Shown: in pieces, positions 42,701 to 58,676 of the stretch | Layout: each line of letters starts with the position of its first letter | Position numbering within the stretch: the first letter of the stretch is position 1 | DNA from: Myxococcota bacterium | GTDB taxonomy: Bacteria > Myxococcota > XYA12-FULL-58-9 > JABJBS01 | Assembly (NCBI GenBank): GCA_036339465.1 | Contig: JAYZAY010000033.1 | Coordinates: forward strand, 32,001 to 96,000 | Reading direction: 5' to 3' | DNA: 64,000 nucleotides | Translations under genes and position numbers: made by a program | Notes under the pieces: generated by a model | What the model was told of the DNA's origin: nothing | Seen by the model: the letters and a program-made list of their open reading frames with translations, nothing else | The model's database searches: none

Positions 42701-42977
42701 AGCCTCCAACCAAGACAATTTCTTCGAATTGGGAGGCGATTCCATTTTAGCCTCAAAAATAATAGAAAACCTCAATCACCTTCTCGAAAAGGAACTTCCA
42801 ATTGCAATCATCTTTCAAGCGCAATCAGCCCAAGCCCTAGCCACAGCGTATCAGCAAAAAGAGTCAGGCCAGTATAAGCTCAATAACAAGAGCGAATCCC
42901 GAGCCCAAAAACAACGAACCGCGTTCAATAATTTCGCCGCCAGAAATGCTTCAAACAAGTCGAAAAAACAGCCATGA
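39708..42977 (+). CDS. Single-module NRPS (C-A-T)
   Basis: HHCLLDG, YTSGSTGRPKG, NAYGPAE, YLTGDLGR, KIQGHRIE, LPKLASGK and FFELGGDS. Confidence 0.95.
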   Translation: MTQLELWQKTEKKELLRKLLMHRSQSELKPVSSVQSDLLKRQFRFPNEINSNIYGTVSADYKLEPAKIEQILNELANTHEFFRTRFSWNHGYPVYTLDTTTNINDLLSVHEVHDPKEAQEKIDHFLQTPMEVFSGPPIRFLISNIFPNHSFFTVVTHHCLLDGDALFRLLQIIGYHYQNSTPQKPKKDTDQTYANFVAQETLDILRGAPKALSRLQTWLTDLSPSQFTPNYSLGLRKDCRPEPILRRIQKSEFTLVHTLNSESYRRFSTFLWLWAKHLKIWYHLENLAIAIPHTRRFTGSHHHILGSMADYFPLFITNNHCPNEEIRNIDCQLINIIDGHQDSSFSFLQRLVEREHGSIHRHLSQTVFDYQDFSRIEELQKDFKFIEGGRLGLPPGTELSLSIREFNSELFVRLDYNKNLFCPWDMEKLVDHFIQKLSGTRENTTFGENLPPIAKNIPDSLPNLSTRIATNLPHLSPSIITDQNQVWTSEKLQEEILRWKRTFHNLKLCAGDIVSVSLDRSCEYISIVIAIWDLGGIYLPIDSNAPLNRITQMLKESGTRFFVAAQESLDPEKLKILVPSLIYLDPKKSPPIATLEKIQSYPLGSQAPAYILYTSGSTGRPKGAMVHHGGLDNHTQAFTQYFHITSQDIIAQTASVLFDISVWQLTQFAWTGAQTVILADEVVSDPLQLLPALHRHAVTIAELTPTQLKLALSCAENPPPLKQLRHMILIGESLTPDLCAQWYNRYPYIPLTNAYGPAECSHAVTLHTVANKLTQDKFIPIGQPMLNCEISLIDDKHNQVPPGAIGEIQIKGPSVGLGYLNNQDETKRAFEFKDHKSPTNRSYLTGDLGRLRRDGKLEFIRRKDHQFKIQGHRIEPEEIEVLCRSFEHVTNAGLGVSNINGHRELVIFLTLSSEKKEIQNELTHFINRDLPIHLRPKAINFVMELPKLASGKLNRRALNVKAEEILKSIVPQDFELYFENETEEIILRQWCQQLRIKKASNQDNFFELGGDSILASKIIENLNHLLEKELPIAIIFQAQSAQALATAYQQKESGQYKLNNKSESRAQKQRTAFNNFAARNASNKSKKQP

Positions 42978-45508
42978 CATCCTCCCCCAAAGTCGCCATC
43001 GTGGGTATTCGTTCCCGCCTTCCCAAAGCCTACCGGGTCAGTGATTTTTGGGATAATCTCAAGAACTCCCGAAATGGAATTTCTCGTTTCACACTCAAAG
43101 ACCATCAAGCTCCCAGCCAACTGGTAGGTGCTAAAGGGATACTGAAAAACTCACTTCATTTTAACCATGTCTTATTCGGCTATTCCAAAGAAGAAGCATC
43201 GTTCCTCGACCCCCAAGAGCGGATCTTGTTGCAACAGTGTCACCAGCTCCTAGCCGAACAGAACAGTATCGAAAACCATGACGACTTCATCACAGGGGTC
43301 TACACGAGTTCTGCAACGAGTCCCTGGCTAGAGCTTCTTCCCTACCTCGCCTCTTCGCTATCGGCATCAGAAAACCAACATCTTTTCCACCTTAACAATC
43401 AAAACTTGGTAGGCGCGAGAATCGCACAGAAACTCAACGTCAACGGACCATCAGCCTCCATAGGATCGGGTTGTTCCAGCGGACTCACCACATTGAGTTA
43501 TGCGGTCAAAGAACTATTAACGTACCAATGCGATTATGCTCTTTGCGGTTCAGCGAAAATTCAATTACCAGAAAAGTCCCCCTATCCTTCTGGGTTTGGG
43601 GATATCTGGTCGCCCACAGGGACCAATCATATCCTTGATGAGCACACTACCGGCACCATCCCCGGAGATGGAGCCATCACCCTCGCCCTCATGAGACTCG
43701 AAGACGCGGAAAAACACGATATCCCTATATACGGATCCATCACTTCATTTGCATCCGGAAATATCACCACAACCAACAAACAGAAATGGTTACCCGATCA
43801 AGACCTTCTCACAAAATTATTGACGCAATTATTCTATCTCACACCCGATGATTGTCCCACCCTGGATTATTGCGAAGTCTCGGCCAATGGTATTTTGGCC
43901 TCTGATCAAATCGAAATAATGGCTTGGAATAATGCCTTTGGCGCCACCTTCCCAAAACAGCCATACCCATACATCGGTACCGCCAAAGGATCTGTCGGCA
44001 ATATTGGCGGGGTCTCTGGGTTGGTGGGACTTGCAAAAATCCTGGGCAGCTTTCAAGAAGGCATGCTATTCAACGAAATATCGGTAAACACACCACACCC
44101 TCTCCTCCAGCTAAACGACCTAAGGGCACGCATACAGTGCAAAGGCGCTTTGTCAACAACTCTAAAGAATCGTTGCGCAGCCCTTCTATCCTATAACCAA
44201 TTCGGAGGCGCCACTGCCTTGATGGTTGAATGGTCAAGTGAGTGGAAACGCCCAGCACCGCAAACATCGCCCCCCCACCCAAGTGCAGACGACGTACACT
44301 GTGCTCCAAGCTATTTCACAGAACACCTCGCGAGTATCGAGAACTCATCCCATAAAGCAACGCTCCGTAACACACACATTGTCCGAAAAGACGACGGGCA
44401 ATTCGAAGAGTACCAAACTCGTTACTCCGACATCAAAGACAATGGCACTGGGCTAAAACCTCTATTTCGGGATATCATCTCCGATTTACTCGGCGCCCCA
44501 GAGGAGCCTCACTCCTTCGAACAAAACCTCTTTAAAGTAGGCTTGAGCTCTTTTCTCATGGTCCGGTTCATTGCCATCATCGAAAAAATAACGGGAACCA
44601 AATTACCCCTAGAGGCAGTTGCGAACTGCCATACCATCGAAAAAATCCATCAACTCTTTCACGAAAATCGTGTTCTGGGTTCTCGCGTAAGTCTATCCCC
44701 ACCAACACAAGTTATTGCAGAGCCTCTCTGTCAAGAAGCAGAATTGGCCACTCTTGTTCAATGGCTGGAACAAAACATCGATTCTACTCTCGAATACGTG
44801 GATTCTCTCATAGACCGCTCCAGTCGAAAGCTTCGATCGTGGAAAGTGATTCTAGACACTTGGCAAAATGACTATCACATCCTAGTGCTGCGCGCGCAAA
44901 ACAACGACAAAAGAAGTGAGGAAATCATCGGAATCGAGGTCCTCACCAAAAAAATAGCCTTGCCGGTTGTCGGCCAGAACCAAATTACCACCATCCCCCA
45001 TTTGTGGGAGTCTCAGATATGGTTGCCGAAAAGACACCGCAACCACTACGACTTGGGAAACATGGACTATAGTCGGTGCACCGAAAACAGCGGCTACAGC
45101 GCGGTGGCACAGGCCGGCATTTTCCTCGCACTCAGCACTGAAAATAAAACCGGGGCTTATTTCTGGGACTGGGTCTGTCAGCAAGTCGCAATAACACCCT
45201 ATGAGTTGAATCAACTCAAAGAAATTCAAACCCCAATACTTTCTCACCTCCCAGCCAATGGCCTTAAGCAGATCGCAAAAAATTTCGACGATTTTTTCTA
45301 TGAAAATATTTCGGGGTATCAATTAAAAAACATTTGGCACAATAACATTCAAGAAGACAAATTTGATATCCTGAGTAACCTCGTGGCTCCTCACCTAAAG
45401 GCTCCTCTCCGTAATATTCTAAATCTTGAGAGGATGGGAAAAACAGAGTTTCTCGGATACACACTTCGTTGGCTGGAGCCTGTTTTCTCATTGCGGTTAT
45501 CGACATGA
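42974..45508 (+). CDS. Divergent PKS protein: non-elongating KS (KS0), ACP, unknown C-terminal domain
   Basis: VAIVG, LDPQER, GPS...GCSSG. EVSANG and VGNIGG replace the two catalytic His motifs. ACP-like LFKVGLSSF. Confidence 0.85.
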   Translation: MTSSPKVAIVGIRSRLPKAYRVSDFWDNLKNSRNGISRFTLKDHQAPSQLVGAKGILKNSLHFNHVLFGYSKEEASFLDPQERILLQQCHQLLAEQNSIENHDDFITGVYTSSATSPWLELLPYLASSLSASENQHLFHLNNQNLVGARIAQKLNVNGPSASIGSGCSSGLTTLSYAVKELLTYQCDYALCGSAKIQLPEKSPYPSGFGDIWSPTGTNHILDEHTTGTIPGDGAITLALMRLEDAEKHDIPIYGSITSFASGNITTTNKQKWLPDQDLLTKLLTQLFYLTPDDCPTLDYCEVSANGILASDQIEIMAWNNAFGATFPKQPYPYIGTAKGSVGNIGGVSGLVGLAKILGSFQEGMLFNEISVNTPHPLLQLNDLRARIQCKGALSTTLKNRCAALLSYNQFGGATALMVEWSSEWKRPAPQTSPPHPSADDVHCAPSYFTEHLASIENSSHKATLRNTHIVRKDDGQFEEYQTRYSDIKDNGTGLKPLFRDIISDLLGAPEEPHSFEQNLFKVGLSSFLMVRFIAIIEKITGTKLPLEAVANCHTIEKIHQLFHENRVLGSRVSLSPPTQVIAEPLCQEAELATLVQWLEQNIDSTLEYVDSLIDRSSRKLRSWKVILDTWQNDYHILVLRAQNNDKRSEEIIGIEVLTKKIALPVVGQNQITTIPHLWESQIWLPKRHRNHYDLGNMDYSRCTENSGYSAVAQAGIFLALSTENKTGAYFWDWVCQQVAITPYELNQLKEIQTPILSHLPANGLKQIAKNFDDFFYENISGYQLKNIWHNNIQEDKFDILSNLVAPHLKAPLRNILNLERMGKTEFLGYTLRWLEPVFSLRLST

Positions 45509-47241
45509 CCCCCATATCAAATAGCAACCAAAAACTGGTCATTATTGAGGCCCACACTCGGGAAGGTCTACTCCAAGAAATAGACAAGCTCCGAATCGCG
45601 CTTTCCTTCCCTCCCGTCACTCCTATGGCCACAACCAACCATGAGGAAAAGACAACCCAGACTTTCAGACTGTGCTTTGTCGCCAACAATCTTGCAGACC
45701 TCCATGGGAAACTAGATTTTTATGCTAAAAGCCAATTTTTCCCTGCGATAACCAGTCCGAAGAAACTCGTATTTGTGTTTGGAGGACTACCAACGACCTT
45801 ACCCAAAGCGCTCTCAACAATTTTTAGTGAGTTTGACATTTTTCGACAGACCATTGAAGACTGCCAAACTGCAATTATCGAATCGGGATACAGCTTTGAC
45901 ATCCTCAGCCCACTTCAAAGCCCAAACAACAACGAGACAATATCAATACGCGACCACTCCATGCCTCTCTTATTTGCCGTTCAGCTAGGCATCAGTCTAC
46001 AACTTCAAGCCTTCGGAATATACCCGGATGCTATCATAGGCCACAGTTTAGGAGAATATGCTGGCGGTTGCGCCGCAGGAATAGGAAAACCAGAAGAAGT
46101 TATCGCAGTGGTCTGTGGTATCGCAAAACATTTACAATCCACACCTCTCAAGGGCCGTATATACAGCATTTTGGGGCCACGAGACCGATTGGACAAAGTC
46201 CTTAGTGACTTTACAGACAGCGCCTTCATTTCGTCGATTAACGGAGACAGAAGCTTTTTGGTCGCCCTAAACGACCGAGAGCAAGCACGGTTTGAGAGTT
46301 CAATCGATTCAGAAGGGCTAACATGCGAAAAGCTCTGGATTGATTACCCTTTCCATAGCCCATTGGCCAAACCACTCGGCGCCGAAATAGAATCACTTTT
46401 AAAGAGAGCAACCCTTACAACCGCCAAAACACCCTATATTTCTGGCGCCCTCGGACGAGAAGAAAACACGAGCGTCGCTCATACTGGCTACTGGAAAACA
46501 CAATTACTTGAGCCAGCTAGATTTGCCCACTGTATTCAACATGCCAATACCAGCTTCAGCGAGCCCTCATTTGTGGATAGTGGTCCGGGTTCCGAACTCT
46601 CTGCATTGATAAAACTCATGCGTTTCCATCATCGGCCTTTAGCCCTGCCCATGGTCCGAAAAAAAGTGACCGCCGAATTATTTACAGATAGCCTCAGCAA
46701 AATCTGGGAGGTTTACGACACTCCAAGTAACTTTGACAAGATAGTGACATCACATGTCATTTACCGAAAACAGGGGGCTGAAAAGAGAGAAACAAAGATT
46801 CATATTCCCGCCTTACAAAAAACAAAGTTCAGTGCACAAACTGTTAGGCAAGAATATTCAATTGAAGAAATAAACAGGTTCGTCCTCTCACAAATAGAAG
46901 CCTCAGCAGGACGTAAACTCGAACTCAACAGCCCCACCACCAGCCTAGGAATCGACTCCCTCGCAGTGCTCAACCTCATCACCTCATGTCTGGACCAATT
47001 CCGGATAGACTTAGCCGTTGAAAAGGTTTTTCGCGCCAAAACCGTCGGCGATATTGGCGAGTTGATTTTTTCCGAAACAAGAAAGATGAAGAAAGCGAAA
47101 AATGAACGCCAAAAAAATAGCATATTCATCAAGAAAGTAGAGGCAGAGATGATTCTCGATAGAATCGATTCCTTGACAGAGCCGGAGGTAGACCGCTACC
47201 TCCAATTGTTCTTATCAGAATGGGAAGACAAGCAAGCATGA
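45505..47241 (+). CDS. Stand-alone PKS linker-AT-ACP protein
   Basis: KS-AT linker-like N-terminus, VFVFGG, GHSLGE, PFHS, YW..QL.EP.RF and ACP LGIDSL. ATGA overlap with the upstream gene. Confidence 0.9.
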   Translation: MTPISNSNQKLVIIEAHTREGLLQEIDKLRIALSFPPVTPMATTNHEEKTTQTFRLCFVANNLADLHGKLDFYAKSQFFPAITSPKKLVFVFGGLPTTLPKALSTIFSEFDIFRQTIEDCQTAIIESGYSFDILSPLQSPNNNETISIRDHSMPLLFAVQLGISLQLQAFGIYPDAIIGHSLGEYAGGCAAGIGKPEEVIAVVCGIAKHLQSTPLKGRIYSILGPRDRLDKVLSDFTDSAFISSINGDRSFLVALNDREQARFESSIDSEGLTCEKLWIDYPFHSPLAKPLGAEIESLLKRATLTTAKTPYISGALGREENTSVAHTGYWKTQLLEPARFAHCIQHANTSFSEPSFVDSGPGSELSALIKLMRFHHRPLALPMVRKKVTAELFTDSLSKIWEVYDTPSNFDKIVTSHVIYRKQGAEKRETKIHIPALQKTKFSAQTVRQEYSIEEINRFVLSQIEASAGRKLELNSPTTSLGIDSLAVLNLITSCLDQFRIDLAVEKVFRAKTVGDIGELIFSETRKMKKAKNERQKNSIFIKKVEAEMILDRIDSLTEPEVDRYLQLFLSEWEDKQA

Positions 47242-48284
47242 CGGTGCCAATAAGCCAATACGAATTGCGCTGGAATTCGTCCACCCTTACCTTATCTTTT
47301 GAGGAGGACATTACCACTTTTGGCAAACCCGAAAACAAGCCAAACACGACCCAAAACACTACGTCGACCCATCTTTGGTGCAATGAAATTGAGACTTACC
47401 CTAAAAGTTCAATCACCAACCACTCCCACAGGGTCATCCTTCAAGCAAAAGGGCCTGATTTTCCTTGCCGAACCCAACTTCGGAACTCGCTCCAGCAATT
47501 ATGTTTAGAAAAAGAGTTCACTCCAGTCAGCACGCCCCATAGTTCACTCCGAACAAAGGCACTGACCGAATCAGTGGCAAGCGGGGTCACCCACATCGGT
47601 GACAAGATAGCCACAAAAATTTCCATTATTGAAGCATCACAAGCTGCAGATATTGAAAAAATCCCCACCAAGATATTGCAAGACTTTGCTACGGTTGAGC
47701 AATTCCTGGTAATAATCAGTGCGCCTCTGCTACGCGCTTTCAAACTCTGCGTTGAAACATTGGGCATACCACAAGAAATTCTTCCCATTCATATCAGACC
47801 TTGGTCACCCTCCTTACGATGCACCACAAACGCCGCCGACCGAATCATTCTGATGGATAAACATCACCTAGATGAAGACCGCCTACATGGATGGAAGCAG
47901 TGGTGCCCAAAAATTGAAACATGGGCCACGAGCTGGCGATGGGAAATCCTAGGACTAAACTTTCCCTTGGGATTAACAATGAACGACTCGTCATTTACCT
48001 GGCTTAAGAGAATGCTTGGGAATGAGTTTGACTACAACTTTTTTGAGCCCGACGGGGCCCAACCAACAACCACCTTGAATGCTTGTCACAATCTCTGGGG
48101 ACAAATCCAGATCCGGTTGAATCTCAAGTATGGCAGTGCATCGGTATTTACTGAGCGTTACCACAGAGGAGTCGAGTTCCTGATTAATGTATTTACCTTG
48201 TCTTATTTTGGTACTCCATTCTCAGTTATAAATCCAATAACAGACCCGGCCCAGCACCCTTATAGAAAAGGGATACCAACATGA
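47238..48284 (+). CDS. Hypothetical protein, likely a highly diverged BpsA-like fold with an AdoMetDC-like tail
   Basis: ATGA-coupled on both sides. By-eye similarity to the 57516-58676 protein, and tail FFEPDG...GQIQIRLNLKYGSASVFT. Confidence 0.55.
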   Translation: MTVPISQYELRWNSSTLTLSFEEDITTFGKPENKPNTTQNTTSTHLWCNEIETYPKSSITNHSHRVILQAKGPDFPCRTQLRNSLQQLCLEKEFTPVSTPHSSLRTKALTESVASGVTHIGDKIATKISIIEASQAADIEKIPTKILQDFATVEQFLVIISAPLLRAFKLCVETLGIPQEILPIHIRPWSPSLRCTTNAADRIILMDKHHLDEDRLHGWKQWCPKIETWATSWRWEILGLNFPLGLTMNDSSFTWLKRMLGNEFDYNFFEPDGAQPTTTLNACHNLWGQIQIRLNLKYGSASVFTERYHRGVEFLINVFTLSYFGTPFSVINPITDPAQHPYRKGIPT

Positions 48285-49495
48285 CCGACGAGTTGCAGAA
48301 CAATGAGCCCCAAAAAGAGACTCTCGTGGTTTCAGAGTTCTCCATAATCCAAAAAAGCGCGAGCCATAAAGATATTGCCTCACCGAAAGCAGAAAATATT
48401 GGGTCCAATATTTCCGCATGCAGAGAAACTCTTTCCGAGCTTGGTTATCGAGATGCAAGCAAAGCACTATCGGGCTCAGAAATTTTACGCACCCACCCCT
48501 CTAAAGTGCTTGAAATCGCGTATCAAGCGTACCGAGTGGCCTATGATTGCCCCGGCATGCTCATGCCTGAAATACCTCTCATCGAAGACCGAATCGGCCT
48601 AATAACCCAGCAACACAAAGGAGAAGTTGCACCAGTTTTACTCTTCGGTGACCTTGCTTTGGAAGCCATTATTCTTACCCTTCATGGTTACCCAACAACC
48701 CTCGTTGCCACAGAGCCCTATGGCCATGGCTTCGCCCAAAAATTTGCTGAACTATTTCCCCCAAAGCGCCTCCAAATCATAGAAATTGGTGACAAACAGG
48801 TAAATCAAACGATACACGATTCCAGGCCTTCGATCATTTGGTGCGAGCTTTGGGCAAACCCCTATTTATTTGGCACCGTTCTCCGCCCCATCCTCGACTT
48901 GGCCACCCCCGAAAACAAGATTTGGGTATCACGCCCCATTACTCTCACCCATCAAATCATGGCAATTTGCTCTTCCATGGGCTGGACCATCGCAGAGCAG
49001 CACAAAGACATTCGCACTGTACTCAAAGAAAATAGATATCGCGATGATTGGTTGCGCTTAGAACCCATCGACAAAGAAAGACCACGAAAACGAAACAACC
49101 CAACCGCACCCCAAAAAGAGATCTGCCTTCCAAGGAAGTTTCAAAGTGAGCCATTCCTGCTGTTAACCGCTGCCGTCTCTCCCAATAATTTGTGTAGATC
49201 ACCCAGTAAACAGCTCGAGGACTTCAAACTGAGCATCGAATCCCTAGGGTATTTTCAAAAACCAACGGAAATATATATTGATTCAACCCAGCTCTATTTC
49301 AAATTAGAGATGGCACCCGGTTGTTTGAGAGTGGGATTTTCGGCCGCAAGAAACCGAATCTCCATCACGGGATCGACGCCAGAAAATCCATTGGCCAGAC
49401 AACTCTTCATGCATCTAGTCCAGGCTCTTCACTGTGACATTCACAATGTCTTTTCCAGTCACACTCAAAACTCATTGGAATTACATATCTCTTAA
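48281..49495 (+). CDS. Degenerate BpsA/DUF43-like protein with an AdoMetDC-like tail
   Basis: YRVAYD...IEDRI...VLLFGDLA...IIWCELWANP parallels the 56167-57519 protein, but GDDD is lost. Confidence 0.6.
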   Translation: MTDELQNNEPQKETLVVSEFSIIQKSASHKDIASPKAENIGSNISACRETLSELGYRDASKALSGSEILRTHPSKVLEIAYQAYRVAYDCPGMLMPEIPLIEDRIGLITQQHKGEVAPVLLFGDLALEAIILTLHGYPTTLVATEPYGHGFAQKFAELFPPKRLQIIEIGDKQVNQTIHDSRPSIIWCELWANPYLFGTVLRPILDLATPENKIWVSRPITLTHQIMAICSSMGWTIAEQHKDIRTVLKENRYRDDWLRLEPIDKERPRKRNNPTAPQKEICLPRKFQSEPFLLLTAAVSPNNLCRSPSKQLEDFKLSIESLGYFQKPTEIYIDSTQLYFKLEMAPGCLRVGFSAARNRISITGSTPENPLARQLFMHLVQALHCDIHNVFSSHTQNSLELHIS

Positions 49496-49640
49496 GTGGC
49501 ATTAATCATTATATCTTACCTCGCATTATCGGTTGTTTCACTTTCAACTTATAAAATTAGAAAAGCCGACTTGATTGGATCTAGGGGTTTTCGATATGGA
49601 CTTAGGCAATCCTAATGGAAACGTTGTATAGCTTCGAACC

Positions 49641-50249
49641 GTGGAGATGAGCGTGGATAAGCTTCTAAAAAGAGCCGAGGAAGATAAAGAAGGAATAATC
49701 AGCCACTTCCGAGAGCTTAAGGGCGAATTTGGCACTGGGCAACTCTTGACCCTGGAAAACTACGACCAATATAAAGATGTCTTCTTTGAATCTCCCAAAA
49801 CAAAACGGCTATTTACCAATGACCCGGAGTTAAGAGTTAGAAAGCTCAAAGAGGTGATCGCAAACGGTCTTTTTGTTTGGGAATTCACACCCGATGGAGC
49901 AAGCGGCGTCGAATTTCTAGTGGGTCTGAGCGTGGCCCACCGGCCCAATGACTTTGTATTGCTGCACCCACTCATTGCCCCAGAAGAGCTGGACTTAGAC
50001 AGTGTTGAGGAGGCCATCACCATGATGACCCATGTTTATCTAACCAACAGCGATAGAAAAACACTCTTTCTCTTTATGGCCGAACAAGACGACGATGACT
50101 TATATGGCGCTTTGGTAAATGTGGGTTATGCAGAGTACGAGGCTCCCAAAGAGTGGGGGGAAAGAAATCTCGATTATTATATCATTTGGCGAGATGCCTA
50201 TGATGTGGACGCACTGGCCCCAGACCTCGTCGAGGATCTCGATATTTAG
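49641..50249 (+). CDS. Acidic hypothetical protein, possible degenerate RimJ/RimL-type GNAT fold
   Basis: IAPE...VEEAITMMTHVYL...LYGALVNVGY pattern, without the usual Gly-rich CoA loop. Confidence 0.55.
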   Translation: MEMSVDKLLKRAEEDKEGIISHFRELKGEFGTGQLLTLENYDQYKDVFFESPKTKRLFTNDPELRVRKLKEVIANGLFVWEFTPDGASGVEFLVGLSVAHRPNDFVLLHPLIAPEELDLDSVEEAITMMTHVYLTNSDRKTLFLFMAEQDDDDLYGALVNVGYAEYEAPKEWGERNLDYYIIWRDAYDVDALAPDLVEDLDI

Positions 50250-50277
50250 ACAATCAATGTCTGGCGCGGCATCCAGC

Positions 50278-51213
50278 CTAAAAAACCATCCGCTCACACA
50301 TCCATCCGGCAAGATTTATCCTCTGCCCAAAGCCATAGGCTCGCTGGACCCGATGCTCTAACCCCGACTTGATTCGGAAAACGAGCAGTTCTCCAAAATC
50401 GATATGGGGCGCAGCAGTGGGGTGTTTTTTCGTCGATTCGCGGAGCTGAAGCCGACCTCCGACATAGAGACGTGGCTTCAAAGAAAGGCTCAATGCTAGA
50501 ACACGGCCTTGGGCTTCCAACACGTCGCTGTGCCAAAGGTCCTTGTCTACCCATGGCCGCATCTTATAAATACGCCCCACGAAACATTTGACCCCAAAAG
50601 TGTCTCTCCCCAATAGCTTCGCCATATAGGCCATAAAAGGCGGAAACGTTAGGAGGTAGTGGCTAATTGTAAGTACAGGCATAATACTAAGATTCAAGTC
50701 TTCACCTACCTCTAGGTGTTGGACTCGACGATAGGATTTCCCTTGAACCAGTGATGAAATTTCAGCCAGTAAATCACCATCAAGGATAGGCCCGAGCTTC
50801 ATCCAATGATTCGAGAGGAAAATCTCTTTTTGGGTTTGAATCACGGCCTCAGGAACGCTGAAGTTCATGGCTTTTCGTGGTCCCTCTAAGTTCACCGCAG
50901 TCACCGGCATCAATAAAGCTTGGATGAAATCAGACTTCGAATTGTGGGTCACCATTTCGCGAAACACAGAGAATATCGCCGGAAAACGTCTCGACTCTCG
51001 ACCCACATGCTCAAAGGGACGATTCGAGTCCCTGCACTCTTTTTCCAGCCGGGTGATAAGCTGTGCTTTGGAGTCGTCTAATAACCCGGAGTCAGAAGCA
51101 ATCACCTCCAAGAAAAGAGAGTCAAAATGACATCCATCGCCACCTTCGACTGCCTTATACAGCTCAATAAACCGAACAAATTGATTGGCTTCCCGGTAAT
51201 TATCCCCACTCAC
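50278..51213 (-). CDS. 2OG-Fe(II) oxygenase
   Basis: WHSD, YVGGRL, GELLVF, HRV and a distal R (QRINLAGW). Confidence 0.88.
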   Translation of the reverse strand: MSGDNYREANQFVRFIELYKAVEGGDGCHFDSLFLEVIASDSGLLDDSKAQLITRLEKECRDSNRPFEHVGRESRRFPAIFSVFREMVTHNSKSDFIQALLMPVTAVNLEGPRKAMNFSVPEAVIQTQKEIFLSNHWMKLGPILDGDLLAEISSLVQGKSYRRVQHLEVGEDLNLSIMPVLTISHYLLTFPPFMAYMAKLLGRDTFGVKCFVGRIYKMRPWVDKDLWHSDVLEAQGRVLALSLSLKPRLYVGGRLQLRESTKKHPTAAPHIDFGELLVFRIKSGLEHRVQRAYGFGQRINLAGWMCERMVF

Positions 51214-51395
51214 TATCGGCTCTTAAGATCTTATAACTATTCACACAATATCATCTAAGTTTTATTGCCTCGCCATTTGCACAAAGTGATCGTCTCAGTG
51301 TCTTACAAGACGCACGCCTGGCTTTATCCATCTCAACCCAGGATTGCAGAACAGAGTCTCTGGAGATATTCTGTTGGAGCCTATAGTTTTGGGCC

Positions 51396-52289
51396 ATGGA
51401 CTCCGATGATACGAAAAAGATTGTAATGAGCTGTAGGCCCCAACTCCTTGAAGATGGCGAGATTACCCCACATGGTTCAGATAAAATAAGTAACTACTTT
51501 CGCATTGGGAAAAAATGGTTTTTGAGGATTTGGAATACTCCCAAACCACATACAAGCGACACACCACCTAAAATCCCCTTAAAACTCCAAACCTATGGCC
51601 AAGAAAACTTTATCGTTTTTCCAAAGGCCCACCCATTTGTTGCTGGGAATACGAATTTCGGTTACTTCTCCGAATTGGTCGTGGGAGTTCACCCCCAAAA
51701 CCCGAAACAAATGAGCCAAAAACCTTGGGCACATCATTTTCTTACCAGTGCCATCGCTCTATTGGGCACCCTCCATGCACTCCGCTTCGAAAAGCAGCCA
51801 ATTCATTTCTCAAATATGGACCCAACTGATTTGTTCGAAAGACATCAAAGCCAACTGAAAAAATACTTTCCTAGGAGAATCCTATTACGCTCCATGGATA
51901 TTCGCGCCACCCTAGAATCTACCCAGGGCATTTTCAATGCAAACACTCTAGCGACCCTCCATACCGACTTCTGGGACCAAAACCTCTTTTGTCATCACCA
52001 ATCGGGTCGCCTAGTCGGGGTTATCGACTATGGCGAATGGCCACTGGGAGATCAAAGTTGGGACCTAGCGCTATTATTTAAAGGAATGCCAAAAACACTT
52101 CGTAGAATCGGCGAAGAACTATATTGTGAGCAAAGAGCTTTCACTCGGCTAGAACAAAAGGCACTCCTACGCAGAAGGATAACCGCCTGGCAGGAGTTCG
52201 AAGTCATCTATAATTTCCTGAGAACCATCTCATACCACCCCGAGGAAAGCGCATTCGCTTATGAAGCGGTTGTAAATCGCCTATGCTAA
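51396..52289 (+). CDS. APH/choline-kinase family phosphotransferase
   Basis: LHTDFWDQNL (HxDxxxxN), VIDYG and GDQSWDLA. Confidence 0.88.
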   Translation: MDSDDTKKIVMSCRPQLLEDGEITPHGSDKISNYFRIGKKWFLRIWNTPKPHTSDTPPKIPLKLQTYGQENFIVFPKAHPFVAGNTNFGYFSELVVGVHPQNPKQMSQKPWAHHFLTSAIALLGTLHALRFEKQPIHFSNMDPTDLFERHQSQLKKYFPRRILLRSMDIRATLESTQGIFNANTLATLHTDFWDQNLFCHHQSGRLVGVIDYGEWPLGDQSWDLALLFKGMPKTLRRIGEELYCEQRAFTRLEQKALLRRRITAWQEFEVIYNFLRTISYHPEESAFAYEAVVNRLC

Positions 52290-52301
52290 ATTTCAAACTC
52301 T

Positions 52302-53021
52302 TTATGAGATCATCGTTGTGCGCAATTCATCGGCAGGTGGAATGAATTCCTGACAAAGGTGGTCAAGTAACGGTCTCGAATTACCATTACCATGGAAGAC
52401 ACAAGGAAAACTCCCCATTTTGAGATTCATCACTCGATGATACTTCGAGTTATAAATCAATGAATCAGGATGCACCTTGTACAAGGTCTGAAAAATACTA
52501 CATTCGTGGTCTAGGCGAATCGCCCCCGGAGCGTCTAAGAAATGGCGACTCAAAACCAACTGGTCGTCGTCAGCAACATCCACCTCCAAACCATTAAAGA
52601 GTTCCCCCAAAGCCCCCACATAACCGATATAGCCCCCGGCATTGAGAAATCGAAAAGGGGATGGGTGTTCTGGGTAGCGTGGTTTTAGTGAAGGATCAGG
52701 CCAAACATTCATTTCTGCCGAAAAAACAATCGGACAATCAAAAGCTTTGAATTTGGAGATTATCTCCTTTGGAGAGGCGCTTAAGACCACGTCAAAACAA
52801 TCGGTAACCATTACAATTGAGTCTTTGTGAAGTTTCTTAAGAACCTCCCGCATTAACAAAATCCGCCAGCCAAACCCTGGCTGATTGTCCACCGGACAAG
52901 GCCACTTCTCCCCAAATGCCAGCACCTTAAACGGAATATCAAAATAAACCGCCGACTCGATAAAGCGTAGCAACAAGGGATCCCGATGGGTGGCCACCGT
53001 ATAGGTCATGAAATCCAACAT
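52302..53021 (-). CDS. PLOD (lysyl hydroxylase/LH3)-type glycosyltransferase domain protein
   Basis: TVAT, TDCFDV, FSAEMNVWPD, FLNAGGYIGY, DDDQL, LDHECSIFQTL and HGNG. Start placed at ATG 53021. Confidence 0.88.
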   Translation of the reverse strand: MLDFMTYTVATHRDPLLLRFIESAVYFDIPFKVLAFGEKWPCPVDNQPGFGWRILLMREVLKKLHKDSIVMVTDCFDVVLSASPKEIISKFKAFDCPIVFSAEMNVWPDPSLKPRYPEHPSPFRFLNAGGYIGYVGALGELFNGLEVDVADDDQLVLSRHFLDAPGAIRLDHECSIFQTLYKVHPDSLIYNSKYHRVMNLKMGSFPCVFHGNGNSRPLLDHLCQEFIPPADELRTTMIS

Positions 53022-53572
53022 CTGGGTATTATGAAGCAAGGAAATATCTGAATCAACGTGCGGTTTTAAGGAACAATCTGTAGGGGCATCACCATAGAGG
53101 ATTAAAGCGACGAACAAAGACAGTGAACTTCTTTGACATTGTGGAAGGAAAAAACCCGCACATAACCTTCCACCGCCCAATGCTTGAAACATCGAGTGGG
53201 GCATGGCAACGCAAAATAGGCAAAGGTGTCATAACAAACAATAGCAAAGAGAAAGCTAAATCGCTTTTAGTCGCTTTCTGCGGCGCGTGGACAGGGGCCC
53301 ATTGCTCATCTTCTCCTGCAAACCAACCGCTGACTCTAAACAAATCAGAACAGAAGTCCCCAAAATCAATTTAACCGCACCCCAAGTCTGCAACATCGTA
53401 GCGTCCCTCCTGTAATATAAAGTTTCTGAGCAAAAATGATACCAATTCATGCACAAGAAGGATTCTAAATTTACGACCTATTATTAAGCACTTAGGTGTA
53501 TTTCCCACGCTTCACCAAATGCAGAAAAACAACAAAAATGTAGATCCGAAAGATTTAAGACATAGATGTAGA

Positions 53573-55024
53573 CTATTCTAATCCACAACGACGTAAGAGT
53601 CCCTCTAATCGAGACCGCGCCTCCATCCGGTGAGCTTCGTAAGCATCAGATTGTCGCAAACTTTGTTGATAGTGGCCCGATTCACCAATCCATTTGCCCG
53701 CCACCATCATCTGTTCGATGCCCAAAACCACTCGGTTCATGGAAAGTGCCCGTAAAACATCGGTTGATGGCCAAAAAGCCGGGTGTTCGACATCCCAAAC
53801 GACTAAATTTGCCAGTGCTCCAGGTTTGATTTCTCCAAATACCATCTCAGGGTGAAGACGGCCGGGAATTCTCCACACCGTATCCAGTAAACGGTCGGGC
53901 TCAGAATACTTCTCCACCTTGCTAAATAGTTGGTTTCTCAGGTTCGCAAGCTCCGATAGGCTGTCCCCATTATTATTACGACAAAATCGTAGGTTTTCTT
54001 GAGAGAAGGTTGGCTTAAAAAAATGGGCTCCTGCCAAGAGCCTAAGCTCAGCCTGAACATCCATGCTGTCGTTTGAAGCACTGCAATCAGTGCCCAAAAC
54101 CATGGGTAATCCCATGTTCTGCCAAGCTTCGAAATTTGCCGAAAAACCAAATTGGAGTTGGGAGTAGCCGCAATATCCCAAGACTGCTCCCGAATCCTTA
54201 AGGGACTCAAGATCTCGATTACTCAAATAAATACCATGCACCCATAGCTGCGGAAAATCACCCGCAAGAACCCCCAACCTCTCTAAGAATTCGACGGGGG
54301 ATACACCATGTCGGTCCAAGGACCGTTGATACTCTTGTGGAGATTGGGCGAGGTGACAGTGTACGGGCAAATGGTGGATTTCGGCATGTTTGAGGATACG
54401 CTGCCACAACTCCGAACTCACTGTGTCTGTAGCATGGGGTCCGAAGGCCGCCAAAATACCTCCATCTCGAAACCGCTGATTGCCTTGAATGGCCTCCACC
54501 GCTGCCAATTCCTTTTCGAGTCGCGGCACACCGGGGCCTGAAAGGTCCTGCATGGTTGGCGCAATGACCCCACTCAATCCCGTATCCAAAAGCGCCTCTC
54601 CTACTTCTTCACCGTAATAGTAGTGGTCCCAAACCGAACCAACACCACACATCAGCGATTCATACGCGCCTAAGCGAGTAAAAGCTCGGACATCACCTGG
54701 CTGTAAATGGGATTCCATCTCATAAAAGAGGTCCTCGACCACATTATCCGCCCGAGCCGCTAAACCTCCCACACCTCGATATGCAGACATGGCCAGATGG
54801 GTATGGCCATTGATAAAGCTCGGGCTTATAAGCTTCGTCCCATAATCATGAAAATCGAGATTACAGCTTCGTGCTTTCTCAAAAACTTCATCACCTCGAG
54901 TACATTCTAAGACACCACCAATTGTGTTACCGTCAATTGTGATTAGGGCAGAGACTATCTGATAGCCACCACCGCCCTTGGAAAGCACAACTTGCTCTGA
55001 AAAAATATTCAACACGTAACCCAC
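53573..55024 (-). CDS. Metal-dependent amidohydrolase (MTA/SAH deaminase, Atz/Trz-like family)
   Basis: FINGHTH, GPHA, HCHLAQS, VHG, LGTD and IKPGALANLVV. Confidence 0.85.
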   Translation of the reverse strand: MGYVLNIFSEQVVLSKGGGGYQIVSALITIDGNTIGGVLECTRGDEVFEKARSCNLDFHDYGTKLISPSFINGHTHLAMSAYRGVGGLAARADNVVEDLFYEMESHLQPGDVRAFTRLGAYESLMCGVGSVWDHYYYGEEVGEALLDTGLSGVIAPTMQDLSGPGVPRLEKELAAVEAIQGNQRFRDGGILAAFGPHATDTVSSELWQRILKHAEIHHLPVHCHLAQSPQEYQRSLDRHGVSPVEFLERLGVLAGDFPQLWVHGIYLSNRDLESLKDSGAVLGYCGYSQLQFGFSANFEAWQNMGLPMVLGTDCSASNDSMDVQAELRLLAGAHFFKPTFSQENLRFCRNNNGDSLSELANLRNQLFSKVEKYSEPDRLLDTVWRIPGRLHPEMVFGEIKPGALANLVVWDVEHPAFWPSTDVLRALSMNRVVLGIEQMMVAGKWIGESGHYQQSLRQSDAYEAHRMEARSRLEGLLRRCGLE

Positions 55025-55156
55025 TCCGGAATTCAGTCAAAGGCGGTTTAACCGTAGACCACTTACCGGGGAATGGAAAGAAGGATTTCGGTGGAGCACA
55101 ACAAACCACAAACTCAACCTTATCGAGCACCCGTCACCGTTACCAATAGACCTCAT

Positions 55157-55879
55157 TTACGAGAAACGGAGTTTGAGTACCCCAAAAAAAGCCTCTCCGA
55201 AGATACTGCTATTCATCTTAGAAAGGCCCCGCTCACGATCGGGAAAGATAATCGGAAACTCCTCAACAAGCGCGCCACATCTAGATGCCCTATACTTCAT
55301 CTCAATCTGGAACAGATATCCACTGGCTTGGATTGAGGAAAAATCTAATTGCTTCAAATAACTCGCCCGAAACCCGTTAAAACCACCCGTCAGATCGCGA
55401 ATACCCACGCCCAAGAGACAACGCGCATAAAAGCTTCCCCCCCAAGAAATCAATCGCCGTTGCCACTCCCAGTTCTCGACACCACCGCCTTTAACCCGTC
55501 GTGACCCCACCACCACATCAGCCTTATGAAGAAGTTGAATCATCGTCGGAAGATATTTTGGGTCGTGGGAAAAATCCGCATCGAATTCAATAATAAATTC
55601 ATAACCCCGCTCAAGTGCCCAATCAAACCCCGCCAAATAAGCGCGGCCCAGCCCACTCTTCTCTCTCCGATGCAGCACGTGAACCCGCGCATCTTCCTTG
55701 GCCAAGTGGTCAGCAGCCTGTCCGGTCCCATCGGGAGAATTGTCGTCGATCACCAAAATATGGACTTGCGGAACGGCCTTCAATACTGCCGGTACAATGA
55801 GATTTATATTCTCTATCTCGTTAAAGGTGGGAATACACACCAGCACCAAACCAGCATCGTCCATGGGAATCGTCGTCAT
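55157..55879 (-). CDS. Polyprenol-monophosphomannose synthase (GT2, DPM1-like)
   Basis: IPTFNE, DDNSPDGT, GLGRAY, DADFSHDP, GSR, DLTGGF and FQIE. Confidence 0.93.
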   Translation of the reverse strand: MTTIPMDDAGLVLVCIPTFNEIENINLIVPAVLKAVPQVHILVIDDNSPDGTGQAADHLAKEDARVHVLHRREKSGLGRAYLAGFDWALERGYEFIIEFDADFSHDPKYLPTMIQLLHKADVVVGSRRVKGGGVENWEWQRRLISWGGSFYARCLLGVGIRDLTGGFNGFRASYLKQLDFSSIQASGYLFQIEMKYRASRCGALVEEFPIIFPDRERGLSKMNSSIFGEAFFGVLKLRFS

Positions 55880-56166
55880 TCAATGGCTCCTAAACTTAAC
55901 CATAGCCTTCCTAACAAATGAATTTCCCTCCAACAAGGCACCATGCTTGGATTTTTCTATCACCCAGTCACCACATAAACCGCCCTCTTAGCCAGGCCCT
56001 AAAAAAGAGTTGGCTGCTCACCTATAAAATACCGAGGATAACCACTTTACTAGATCAGCAAGGCTTCTTGTCTCAGGATAAGGTCCAAAACGATAACGAA
56101 TTGCGTTCACCTCTCTAGGTTGCCCTGAGAATAACCTCTCATAAAGTCCATGACTTAGGACCATGT

Positions 56167-57519
56167 TCAGATTCGCCGTTTCCCGTCTTCGGACTTCTTA
56201 CAAAAATCCAGACTCCATTCCGATGAGCCAGTAAACTTGTCCACATGATATTCACCGGACGCCATCAAATTACACCCAATCTCCACCAGCCGATGGCCCA
56301 GTTCCGGCAAGAATGGAAAGAGCCGAAATTCCAATCGAAGACGACTTGGATCCGAACAAACTTGTAGGAGGGTCCCCAAACCAACCCGCAGCGAAGCAAT
56401 TTGCGCCCCACCACATATTAAACGACCTACTTCAACAATTTGTTCCTCTCGATTTTCTTTCAGATAGTCGATCAATAAATCCATATACGTGCCCGACAAA
56501 TCCCGCAACGAATGAAGATTGGACCATGTCACTCGAAAAACTGTCTGATGAGAGATCGGTAATTCGCGGTCAAAGAGCTCTAGCTCTCCATCAAAATCAA
56601 AGTAGGATTGGCACTGCCCCATCGCCATGGAGTCTTTTTGGCATATCACATAATCACTTTCATAAGGGTGAACAACCAGTTCCTGAGTATAATACTGATT
56701 CAATCTATAATGGGTTTCATGAATCGCAAAACGATATTTTTCGCTCAGACGAACAAATTCCCGGCGAATCAAAGGATTGACCGCAATCCCCAAAACCCCA
56801 CCCGGCTTCAAAAAAGATCTCGCTCGAGCCAAAACAAGTTCGAGGAAAGTCGGCGTCGGCATGGGATCGGTAAAAACCAGGTCTTGGGTCTCAAATAACT
56901 CCTCGGGGGGAGGTGTTCGAAAATCGTAGTATCTGGCCACAAGGTCATCATTGATACACGAAACTGTCTCCAACAAATTGGGGTCAGCATCCAAAACCGT
57001 AACACCTATATTTGAACGCATATTCAGACCCGCACAAAGAAAATCATCATCCCCCAAACATAGCGCCTTTATCTCCGAGGGATACTCTTTAAATTCTAAT
57101 GCGTGCTGGATCCTGGCCACCACAACCGATGGCAAAACAGGGCATTGACCCAGGGAAAAATCGTACCACCGCCTGGATGAATGAGCTTTGAGCACAGACT
57201 CCAACATCGCTTGATACTCTTGTTCATTGTCGGAAATTTCTTTGCGACAAAGAGACGTTAATTCTCTAAGTAGGTCACACACCACCGAATCATATTTGTG
57301 TTCTTCCCTATCCTCTTGAGAAACAACAAGTCCCTGATTTAGAAGTTCACCCACATCTTCATCCAAAACATCCTCGCCCTGAACCATTTGTTCAATCACT
57401 TGAGTCAAATCGAGAGAAAGCTTATGGACCCTTCTTTCGGGAGTCGTAAGGTCGATGAGCTGGATACCTTCCTTCGAATAGCTGGCAACCACACCCGTGC
57501 GTAACCGAAGCAAACTCAC
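56167..57519 (-). CDS. Branched-chain polyamine synthase (BpsA/DUF43)-like protein with an AdoMetDC-like tail
   Basis: YDFSLGQCP...VVARI, LGDDDFL, VTVLDAD, YDFRTPPP, DLVFTDP and ARSFLKPGG. GTG 57519 overlaps the upstream TGA and follows GGGAG. Confidence 0.82.
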   Translation of the reverse strand: MSLLRLRTGVVASYSKEGIQLIDLTTPERRVHKLSLDLTQVIEQMVQGEDVLDEDVGELLNQGLVVSQEDREEHKYDSVVCDLLRELTSLCRKEISDNEQEYQAMLESVLKAHSSRRWYDFSLGQCPVLPSVVVARIQHALEFKEYPSEIKALCLGDDDFLCAGLNMRSNIGVTVLDADPNLLETVSCINDDLVARYYDFRTPPPEELFETQDLVFTDPMPTPTFLELVLARARSFLKPGGVLGIAVNPLIRREFVRLSEKYRFAIHETHYRLNQYYTQELVVHPYESDYVICQKDSMAMGQCQSYFDFDGELELFDRELPISHQTVFRVTWSNLHSLRDLSGTYMDLLIDYLKENREEQIVEVGRLICGGAQIASLRVGLGTLLQVCSDPSRLRLEFRLFPFLPELGHRLVEIGCNLMASGEYHVDKFTGSSEWSLDFCKKSEDGKRRI

Positions 57520-58676
57520 AACAATGCTCCCGCTTTGGATAGCTGCGTTTTTCCTACCCAGTCCGTCCTTACCGGTAAGCGGCGGGTATAAAGACCACCA
57601 AAGTGGTATAAGAAGGCTAAACATACCAAACGCTCAAGCCCTACCTTCCCTTGGGGGCATAAAAATGAAAGTCTTGCGGAATTCGTCTTGGGGTCCAATA
57701 ACATCGTTAAATCCTCCCCCATATCCCCTAACCACGAGATGAGTTCGAAATCGCCCACATCATAGAGACTGAGTTCTCCGCGCTTACGGTCAAACAATGC
57801 CTCTAACACCATAAGAAACGGCGAGGCGCCGACATTCCCCATCTGCTTGCGGTCCAACTCAACGAAGCTCATATCAAAACGAAATACTTCGAACTTGGGG
57901 TCAGAGGAGAAACGCTCCACCCAATAAAGGGCTTCTCTTATTTGTCTCACTCGAACCAACAATAGGTCAGCTGATTCATCGAGTGTGGTTCCCTTGGGAG
58001 TAACCCAAGATTCAGCATCCTTTGAAGCTCTGACAAGTTCGAGGGTGCCGTTTTGAAAAAGGGAAGAGAGAATACGATCCCAAGGAGACCTGACCAGTAA
58101 CACCATTGCATCACCATCCTCAATGAAACCAAGAGCAGTCTTCAACTGTAGAAGACCAGTCTCAATATCTCCCAAACTAATCAGCGGTAAGACACACTCC
58201 TGCCTATCGAATGTCTGCTCATGCAATCGGGTCAAAATTGTTTTCGTAAACAATGACTCATCCAGCGCTTCAAAATGTGCAACGACCTCACTGGTGATCA
58301 CCAGATGTAAGTTCTGTCTCCTGCTTCCGTCAGAGAGATGCGGATTCCAATAATCAAAACCAAGAAGCGTCTTCCCAAAGACTTCGTTTCCACACCAGTC
58401 TCGTAATAACCGGGCGCTCCTCGCCTTATCATTCTCGGAACTTCGAAACCAGCCACCACATCCATCAAAGCAATGGAGGGGCTCACCCTCATCAACGAGG
58501 CTATCATAGAGCACCCATATATCCCTTAACGAAGGATTGGTTTGGAGATAACCTTCGAATTTCTGATTCCAGGAAGGACTTGAAAGAATCAAGTCGGAGC
58601 TCTTAATGATCTGTGTAGGAGGACCGATATCAGGCAATCGGGTATTGGTGGGAGCACCAAAAATAACTCGGCTCAC
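57516..58676 (-). CDS. Hypothetical protein, likely a diverged BpsA-like fold with an AdoMetDC-like tail
   Basis: LKTALGFIEDGDAMVLLV...ADLLLV parallels ARSFLKPGGVLGIAV...SDYVIC of the next gene. Confidence 0.6.
   Translation of the reverse strand: MSRVIFGAPTNTRLPDIGPPTQIIKSSDLILSSPSWNQKFEGYLQTNPSLRDIWVLYDSLVDEGEPLHCFDGCGGWFRSSENDKARSARLLRDWCGNEVFGKTLLGFDYWNPHLSDGSRRQNLHLVITSEVVAHFEALDESLFTKTILTRLHEQTFDRQECVLPLISLGDIETGLLQLKTALGFIEDGDAMVLLVRSPWDRILSSLFQNGTLELVRASKDAESWVTPKGTTLDESADLLLVRVRQIREALYWVERFSSDPKFEVFRFDMSFVELDRKQMGNVGASPFLMVLEALFDRKRGELSLYDVGDFELISWLGDMGEDLTMLLDPKTNSARLSFLCPQGKVGLERLVCLAFLYHFGGLYTRRLPVRTDWVGKTQLSKAGALL

Follow-up and report, generated by a model that had tools for sequence, protein, structure and literature searches.

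BpsA, the N4-bis(aminopropyl)spermidine synthase (PF01861), has so far been regarded as a thermophile enzyme that acts on its own in making branched polyamines. In a review, the GDDD motif of Tk-BpsA runs from Gly157 to Asp160, with Asp159 and Asp160 essential; Asp225, Glu259, Tyr290 and Tyr316 are also named, and a short flexible acidic region at the C terminus is said to carry the aminopropyl group (PMC12979288). Two further systems bear on what follows. The N-terminal domain of human spermine synthase resembles S-adenosylmethionine decarboxylase (AdoMetDC) by structure and not by sequence, is needed for dimerization, and comes from a bacterial fusion of AdoMetDC with an aminopropyltransferase (PMC12803844). 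The prozymes of trypanosomatids (AdoMetDC/prozyme, DHS, and PRMT1) couple an active or weak enzyme to a dead paralogue in S-adenosylmethionine (SAM) chemistry related to polyamines. Here we describe a locus that appears to combine elements of all three. It lies in a 64,000-nucleotide stretch (the window) of contig JAYZAY010000033.1 from a Myxococcota bacterium (assembly GCA_036339465.1) and consists of two adjacent genes, encoding P0004 and P0003; a second coupled gene pair, P0001-P0002, lies in the same window.

A preliminary description had taken all four open reading frames (ORFs) for BpsA paralogues with AdoMetDC-like tails. This is correct for the pair at 56167-58676 and probably so for the P0002 core; for P0001, and for the tails of both P0001 and P0002, it is unproven. 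Our best explanation, to which we assign a probability of roughly 70%, is that P0004 and P0003 form an aminopropyltransferase/pseudoenzyme module with dead AdoMetDC tails, in a prozyme-like arrangement. As evolutionary anatomy, a family made up of an enzyme and a degenerate paralogue, with a non-processing tail derived from AdoMetDC, is well supported for this pair; the donor, the acceptor and any repurposing we infer.

P0003 passes the Pfam model BpsA_C (PF01861) with 31.7 bits against a cut-off of 27 (E 1.2e-7), and homologues occur in 20 of 40 related genomes. The profile of a 22-row alignment of its family, P0003 included (family A, alignment A1), matches the BpsA crystal structure 5xnc at E 5.5e-29, covering BpsA residues 143-311; P0003 matches its own family, with P0003 removed, at an HHalign E of 4.1e-36. 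Comparison with BpsA structures, a check proposed with the preliminary description, ranked BpsA first: the AlphaFold2 (AF2) model of P0003 (predicted local distance difference test [pLDDT], 79.4) found 5xnf_A with Foldseek (E 3.6e-13), all of the top nine hits being BpsA or its Pyrococcus homologue. The order of domains is an N-terminal beta/helical domain, a Rossmann core (GDDD, FTDPMP, YY, YESDY), an acidic disordered linker (residues ~305-324, pLDDT <50) and the AdoMetDC-like tail as an extra domain, with no short C-terminal region. All 25 invariant columns of A1 are kept in P0003, including the GDDD motif (LGDDDF in P0003 and invariant across A1), the TDP aspartate and the YY tyrosine; in the profile alignment these align with Asp158-160, Asp225 and Tyr290 of Tk-BpsA. 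As had been claimed, GDDD occurs in P0003 alone among the four proteins. Judged by sequence and model together, P0003 is a BpsA-family subunit of aminopropyltransferase type that retains every invariant family residue. The other three proteins have no Pfam hit at E ≤1 and so fail the BpsA_C model, and an NCBIfam scan of all four returned chance-level rows only.

The tail of roughly 110 residues adopts a beta-alpha-beta4-alpha-beta order in both AF2 models, that of whole P0003 and that of the tail alone (pLDDT, 77; predicted template modelling score, 0.72). With the P0003 tail as query, Foldseek placed the AdoMetDC structure 2iii first (E 1.1e-3; template modelling [TM] scores, 0.55/0.60), followed by 1vr7 and 1tlu and then by human spermine synthase (3c6k); a second, independent structure aligner also ranked AdoMetDC entries and the AdoMetDC-like domain of spermine synthase first. 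Sequence profiles point the same way. A profile of 12 genuine AdoMetDC genes from relatives' loci matched the family A tail alignment (A4) with a probability of 84.8 and an E of 6.5e-6 over 96 columns; its score was 36.1, compared with 15.2 for the reversed profile and 22.0 for the best of 40 column shuffles. In this alignment SESHIALHSWPE faces eGHLtLHvDRe. The Glu-Ser-His (ESH) of real AdoMetDCs corresponds to eGH in the tail consensus and to LGT (Leu-Gly-Thr) in P0003: the pyruvoyl-forming Ser is Gly in the consensus, Glu-Ser has become x-Gly there and Leu-Gly in P0003, and the processing His is not retained in P0003. The tail thus lacks the Glu-Ser self-cleavage site, as first proposed. 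Its link to AdoMetDC by sequence appears at the family level only: the AdoMetDC profile gave E 0.13-0.67 against each whole window protein singly. From PDB sequences, the tail profile retrieved antibody noise only (E >0.5). The tails of P0003's family and of its partner's family (alignment A5) are homologous (probability 88.4, E 2.8e-6), and the P0004 tail matches a combined tail profile without window rows at E 2e-5. These fold and profile matches identify the tail as an AdoMetDC-like fold, kin to real AdoMetDC genes, without the Glu-Ser processing site.

We think it very unlikely that the tail is instead a common two-layer alpha/beta sandwich that came to resemble AdoMetDC by convergence and does something else, such as sensing a ligand in the manner of ACT- or Bet v1-type domains. 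Its identity to AdoMetDC structures is 6-12%, and the Pfam AdoMet_dc model is blind to every tail; however, AdoMetDC and the AdoMetDC-derived domain of spermine synthase came first in two independent aligners, the profile match to real AdoMetDCs exceeded both of its controls, and descent also accords with the tail's association with aminopropyltransferases and AdoMetDC genes.

The kinship of P0004 to P0003 was less direct. Pairwise BLASTP among the four proteins gave nothing significant (best E, 0.08-0.17), so the by-eye alignments on which the preliminary description relied are not significant alone. Wherever relatives have a weak P0004 homologue, it is the gene immediately upstream of a P0003 homologue. 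We aligned 15 such partner genes with P0004 (family B, alignment A3); additional family B hits at L043, L059 and L009, truncated or short, support the conserved adjacency. The upstream ORFs of L040 and L045 failed to align as family B partners and were removed from an earlier alignment (A2); the clade of L040, L044 and L045, from another family of the phylum, has no B partner. Families A and B match over 338 columns spanning core and tail (HHalign probability 99.1, E 1.4e-18), and the match persists at E 2.5e-19 without both window proteins; P0004 matches family B without itself at probability 95.6 and E 1.2e-8 (residues 157-377). Through this bridge (E 1.2e-8, then 2.5e-19), the proposal that P0004 is a paralogue of P0003 stands. 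GDDD is degenerate in family B (e.g., DDPDGL and GDVDGL), and the motif region is deleted in the P0004 alignment; against the PDB, the family B profile returned a single marginal methyltransferase row (E 0.042). By these profile comparisons, P0004 is paralogous to the P0003 family over its full length but no longer has the motif, and for that loss we read it as a pseudoenzyme. Families A and B are thereby paralogous while only one of them keeps the catalytic residues, which is the hallmark of a prozyme-type pair.

Gene order in relatives ties the pair to decarboxylated SAM (dcSAM) chemistry, as had been suspected. We examined 18 loci with adjacent B and A genes (17 among L027-L046, plus L059; several others of these end at a contig edge). 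A genuine AdoMetDC gene is present in 11 of the 18, and in 9 (L027, L028, L029, L030, L033, L034, L039, L046 and L059) it lies directly upstream, as the first gene of an AdoMetDC-B-A (dc-B-A) operon. All 20 other genomes with family A have an AdoMet_dc match, and so do all five genomes of the same taxonomic family as the window's genome; in two of these, G001 and G002, the match is an AdoMetDC-spermidine synthase fusion of about 423 amino acids (aa). Natural BpsA_C+AdoMet_dc fusion proteins also exist (an ESM Atlas cluster). A third subfamily (alignment A6, 424-442 aa) has the same core and tail architecture (E 6.3e-58 against A1); for its members L052-L056 (G014:C75, G006:C70, G018:C6, G007:C3 and G020:C90) we saw no B partner, their neighbourhoods lying beyond the scope of the analysis. 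Carriers of the family are labelled Myxococcota, "Deltaproteobacteria" or "Bdellovibrionales" metagenome-assembled genomes (MAGs), and in Paenibacillus, Streptomyces and Clostridia the match is confined to the core. P0004-P0003 thus appears to be the local copy of a conserved two-gene module of an uncultured Myxococcota order.

Two relatives have an APH-family phosphotransferase gene immediately before the (dc-)B-A genes (L039, 3121-4005; L032, 7625-8767); the window has an APH-family gene at 51396-52289, about 4 kb from P0003.

How such a module might work can be sketched from these parts, whose homology, folds, motif states and gene order are observed directly. Both tails would descend from a class 1b AdoMetDC that lost self-processing. 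The two dead decarboxylase domains would pair, as AdoMetDC protomers and the human spermine synthase N-domain do, and so tether one active and one inactive Rossmann core in a prozyme-like arrangement; the active subunit would then use dcSAM to aminopropylate a polyamine-type amine. The genuine AdoMetDC encoded as the first gene of the same operon would supply this donor in relatives. In the window's genome, the module is strongly diverged and set beside tailoring genes and a nonribosomal peptide synthetase-polyketide synthase (NRPS-PKS) operon that ends in the second coupled pair. That the two proteins form a heteromer we infer. Complex prediction, proposed earlier as a check, lends this pair weak support: with P0003 given A1 and P0004 given A3 in one job, the score was 0.40 (runs 0.40, 0.35 and 0.43), compared with 0.01 for the best of three controls, with at least 26% of contacts shared between runs and a partner pLDDT of at least 51. 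In calibration, 116 of 157 solved complexes and 2 of 215 mismatches passed the mark applied; passes at 0.60 or below comprised only 18 of the 157 solved complexes and both passing mismatches. We take the predicted heterodimer as a hint and not as evidence of binding.

Table 1. Features of the window discussed in the text (positions are those of the 64,000-nucleotide stretch)
Feature	Position	Strand	Description
P0001	47238..48284	+	Orphan ORF; alternative longer form from 47220
P0002	48281..49495	+	Orphan; probable very diverged BpsA-like core, residues ~115-269
P0003	56167..57519	-	Putative catalytic-type BpsA-family subunit; 450 aa, GTG start at 57519
BpsA_C Rossmann core of P0003	56686..57150	-	Residues 124-278 of the 450-aa form (Pfam stretch 159-313 of the 485-aa ORF)
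P0003 tail, probably AdoMetDC-derived, non-processing, beta-alpha-beta4-alpha-beta	56170..56568	-	
P0004	57516..58676	-	Degenerate paralogous partner, family B; 386 aa
P0004 tail	57519..57911	-	Homologous to the P0003 tail
NRPS (condensation-adenylation-thiolation, C-A-T), ketosynthase-acyl carrier protein (KS-ACP) and acyltransferase-acyl carrier protein (AT-ACP) genes	39708..47241	+	Pfam and NCBIfam; overlapping ORF ends

The four ORFs are present as first claimed, with frames and overlaps checked (Table 1). Each pair is joined by a 4-nucleotide start/stop overlap (ATGA at 48281-48284 and GTGA at 57516-57519). The ATG of P0001 overlaps the AT-ACP stop codon, which places the NRPS (C-A-T), KS-ACP, AT-ACP, P0001 and P0002 genes in one operon. 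P0003 has a second possible start, ATG 57624, further upstream; public gene calls take the 450-aa form. In-frame coding scores are positive for all four ORFs. That of P0001 (0.032 in frame, about -0.22 off frame) is the lowest of 13 genes scored, the other 12 having 0.09-0.28.

In the second pair, P0002 probably has a BpsA-like core. It matches A1 at an HHalign E of 3.3e-4 over 151 columns, in the register that had been drawn by eye; its score of 38.0 exceeded the best of 100 shuffles (25.0) and that of the reversed sequence (14.5). In this register GDDD faces GDLA, TDPMSN faces CELWANP, and YESDWVEL faces YRDDWLRL, and comparison with A6 gives the same one at E 0.048. By ESM Atlas features, its top neighbour was a Myxococcota BpsA_C cluster (0.91, with 201 features in common and 22 of 30 hits), and its Atlas model (pLDDT, 0.54) reaches a TM score of 0.43-0.44 to BpsA_C clusters, one of them a natural BpsA_C+AdoMet_dc fusion cluster. 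P0002 is therefore probably a BpsA-like core that has diverged very far and has no catalytic aspartates (GDDD to GDLA, TDP to CEL). P0001 has no family match in Pfam or NCBIfam, reaches E 0.72 and 0.83 against the two family profiles, and scores 0.75 in the ESM Atlas with a pLDDT of 0.33; its likeness to a B partner is one of position only. Apart from themselves or a fragment, neither protein of this pair has a homologue in the 40 relatives or in an index of 5.8 billion clusters, nor does P0002 in an HMMER scan of 1.84 billion representatives. The earlier view of both as paralogues thus holds, with a "probably", for the P0002 core and is unproven for P0001. The same division applies to the tails: AdoMetDC-like tails stand for P0003 (fold and profile) and P0004, but those proposed for P0001 and P0002 have E values within reach of shuffles. 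For the P0001 tail, E is 0.044 at best (range, 0.044 to 0.53 across comparisons) and 1 of 60 shuffles scores higher; for the P0002 tail, comparison with A4 gives E 0.021 and with the combined tail profile 0.15, and higher scores come from 3 of 60 shuffles.

These values bear on the proposal that all four proteins, P0001 included, are paralogues: two enzyme/pseudoenzyme heterodimers with AdoMetDC-like tails, repurposed for a non-polyamine acceptor such as an NRPS-PKS product or a secretion-system protein. We regard this as possible but doubtful. The P0001-P0002 layout mirrors that of B-A, with a shorter upstream partner and the 4-nucleotide overlap; the best, non-significant tail alignments of P0001 and P0002 fall in the register of the GHLxLH motif; both pairs flank the block of tailoring genes and the NRPS-PKS operon; and an AdoMetDC was not found in the window's genome, where P0003 has a long branch. 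Against it stand the profile and tail values just given for P0001 and P0002. Since both lack GDDD, the P0001-P0002 pair would be without a BpsA-type catalytic subunit, and evidence of any kind for such an acceptor is lacking.

Returning to the P0004-P0003 module with dead AdoMetDC tails, several results count against it. In the profile alignment, family A does not conserve Glu259 of Tk-BpsA. Compared directly with the family A profile, P0004 shows no similarity (E 0.33-0.43), so its link to family A is transitive through family B. The AdoMet_dc model (PF02675) matches none of 21 tails at E ≤10, and taken by themselves the family B tails show no match to AdoMetDC (E 0.088). For the second pair, the HHalign probability of the P0002 match to A1 is only 38%, Pfam gives no hit for P0002 at E ≤1, and for the kinship of P0001 to BpsA-like proteins there is no support. 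In the window's genome (92.8% complete), PF02675 has no match at E ≤10, which leaves the proposed donor without a visible source there; a search with PF01536 (eukaryote-type AdoMetDC) had no hit either, but its control was equally silent, so it is uninformative. A Spermine_synth protein is encoded elsewhere in this genome. Finally, the terminal branch of P0003 is 4.08 changes per site long, against a median of 0.46, and its composition is deviant; P0003 may have changed in function or be drifting. Its identity to homologues in genomes of the same taxonomic family is 26-30%, that of P0004 19-25%, and that of two calibrator proteins from the window 38-48%.

Divergence on this scale raises the question whether the window copies are relics, a module drifting after loss of AdoMetDC, with P0001 and P0002 as older decayed duplicates or unrelated orphans in the operon. 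We consider this unlikely. In its favor are the branch length and composition of P0003, the missing AdoMet_dc match in a genome whose 20 fellow carriers all have one, the weakest coding score falling to P0001, and the orphan status of P0001 and P0002 in searches of about 5.8 billion clusters and, for P0002, of 1.84 billion representatives. However, the four frames are intact over 348-450 codons and translationally coupled, P0003 keeps every family-invariant column, and coding scores are positive in frame throughout. Moreover, because the calibrators themselves share just 38-48% identity with the same-family genomes, much of the divergence is lineage-wide; and because the genome is about 93% complete, its AdoMetDC gene may simply be unassembled.

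A more speculative reading, which strikes us as quite improbable, is that the module was recruited, and once duplicated, into a natural-product cluster made up of the NRPS, KS-ACP and AT-ACP genes, P0001-P0002, a 2-oxoglutarate (2OG) oxygenase, a kinase, two glycosyltransferases, an amidohydrolase resembling 5'-methylthioadenosine (MTA) deaminase, and P0004-P0003. P0003 would then use SAM or an otherwise supplied aminopropyl group: without AdoMetDC, it would place 3-amino-3-carboxypropyl from SAM, or aminopropyl, on a carrier-bound intermediate. The GDDD-less P0001-P0002 would serve as a docking or substrate-presenting scaffold, held by the dimer interface of the dead decarboxylases.

The surroundings of the P0004-P0003 module are varied. 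It starts 72 nucleotides downstream of an LcrH/SycD-like chaperone and SseC-like operon and lies upstream of a family 2 glycosyltransferase (GT2), an amidohydrolase of the chlorohydrolase/MTA-deaminase group and a PLOD-type glycosyltransferase. Salvage of MTA by the APH-family gene and the amidohydrolase is an idea with hints only: the former matches generic kinase models only, and the latter matches the chlorohydrolase/MTA-deaminase group far below cut-offs.

The operon directly upstream of P0004 (58749-63978, minus strand) has the look of a type III secretion translocator operon: it encodes an LcrH/SycD-like tetratricopeptide repeat chaperone (TIGR02552, E 2.2e-19) and an SseC-like protein (E 2.8e-4), both below cut-off, as well as a 281-aa and a 790-aa protein without family, the 790-aa gene being the one nearest P0004. 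Within 50278-53204, a distinct gene for a 2OG-Fe(II) oxygenase lies about 1 kb from that for the PLOD-type glycosyltransferase domain protein (PF25342, E 3.6e-53); these are the two activities of the animal collagen lysyl hydroxylase/glycosyltransferase, an unusual set in a bacterium. Just before the NRPS-PKS operon, at 36612-39245 (plus strand), lies the gene for a Fic/DOC-domain (E 2.2e-11) protein of 877 aa, which could be a secreted AMPylating effector. At 33209-34918 (plus strand) is a gene for a protein with a cytochrome c motif region and a copper type II ascorbate-dependent monooxygenase C-terminal domain (E 1.5e-9), followed by one for a thioredoxin-domain protein. GC skew on the plus strand is negative in all 2-kb bins of the window (1-64000) regardless of gene strand, and AT skew changes sign near 58 kb.

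If our reading is right, an uncultured Myxococcota order carries a BpsA core joined to a fossil AdoMetDC domain, together with an inactive paralogue as its partner and, often, a live AdoMetDC gene ahead of the two; we found no description of this architecture of BpsA core, AdoMetDC tail and paralogous partner in the open-access literature. The dc-B-A genes of relatives would be a three-gene operon for an uncharacterized polyamine product, and the tail profiles offer a sequence-level link, missed by Pfam, between AdoMetDC and a non-catalytic domain. The window's genome adds a puzzle of its own, with diverged copies, no visible source of dcSAM and an NRPS-PKS operon alongside.

Set against the known systems, P0003 shares with BpsA (5xnc, 5xnf, 5xnh, 6j26-28 and 2qm3) the Rossmann core, the GDDD loop, the TDP Asp and the conserved Tyr. 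It differs in having the AdoMetDC-like domain, after an acidic disordered linker, where BpsA has its short acidic terminus, in the lack of a conserved Glu259, in its degenerate paralogous partner gene, and in its carriers, which are uncultured Myxococcota MAGs and not known thermophiles. With class 1b AdoMetDC (SpeH/SpeD; PF02675; 2iii, 1vr7 and 1tlu) the tail shares the fold and the profile homology, but it has no Glu-Ser site and no Pfam match, and P0003 has no processing His; for these reasons it is not a decarboxylase. Bacterial fusions of AdoMetDC with an aminopropyltransferase are represented, as live AdoMetDC-spermidine synthase forms, in the two same-family relatives mentioned above. 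The closest precedent for the tail is the N-domain of human spermine synthase, likewise a dead AdoMetDC-derived domain fused to an aminopropyltransferase; there, however, the transferase is of SpeE type and the domain N-terminal, whereas here the transferase is of BpsA type and the domain C-terminal, in active and inactive paralogues alike. Trypanosomatid prozymes are eukaryotic, and their heteromers and activation are shown experimentally, whereas pairing here is suggested by gene order and a weak complex score. If it holds, the P0004-P0003 module would be a bacterial counterpart both of the dead AdoMetDC dimerization domain of spermine synthase and of prozyme activation in trypanosomes.

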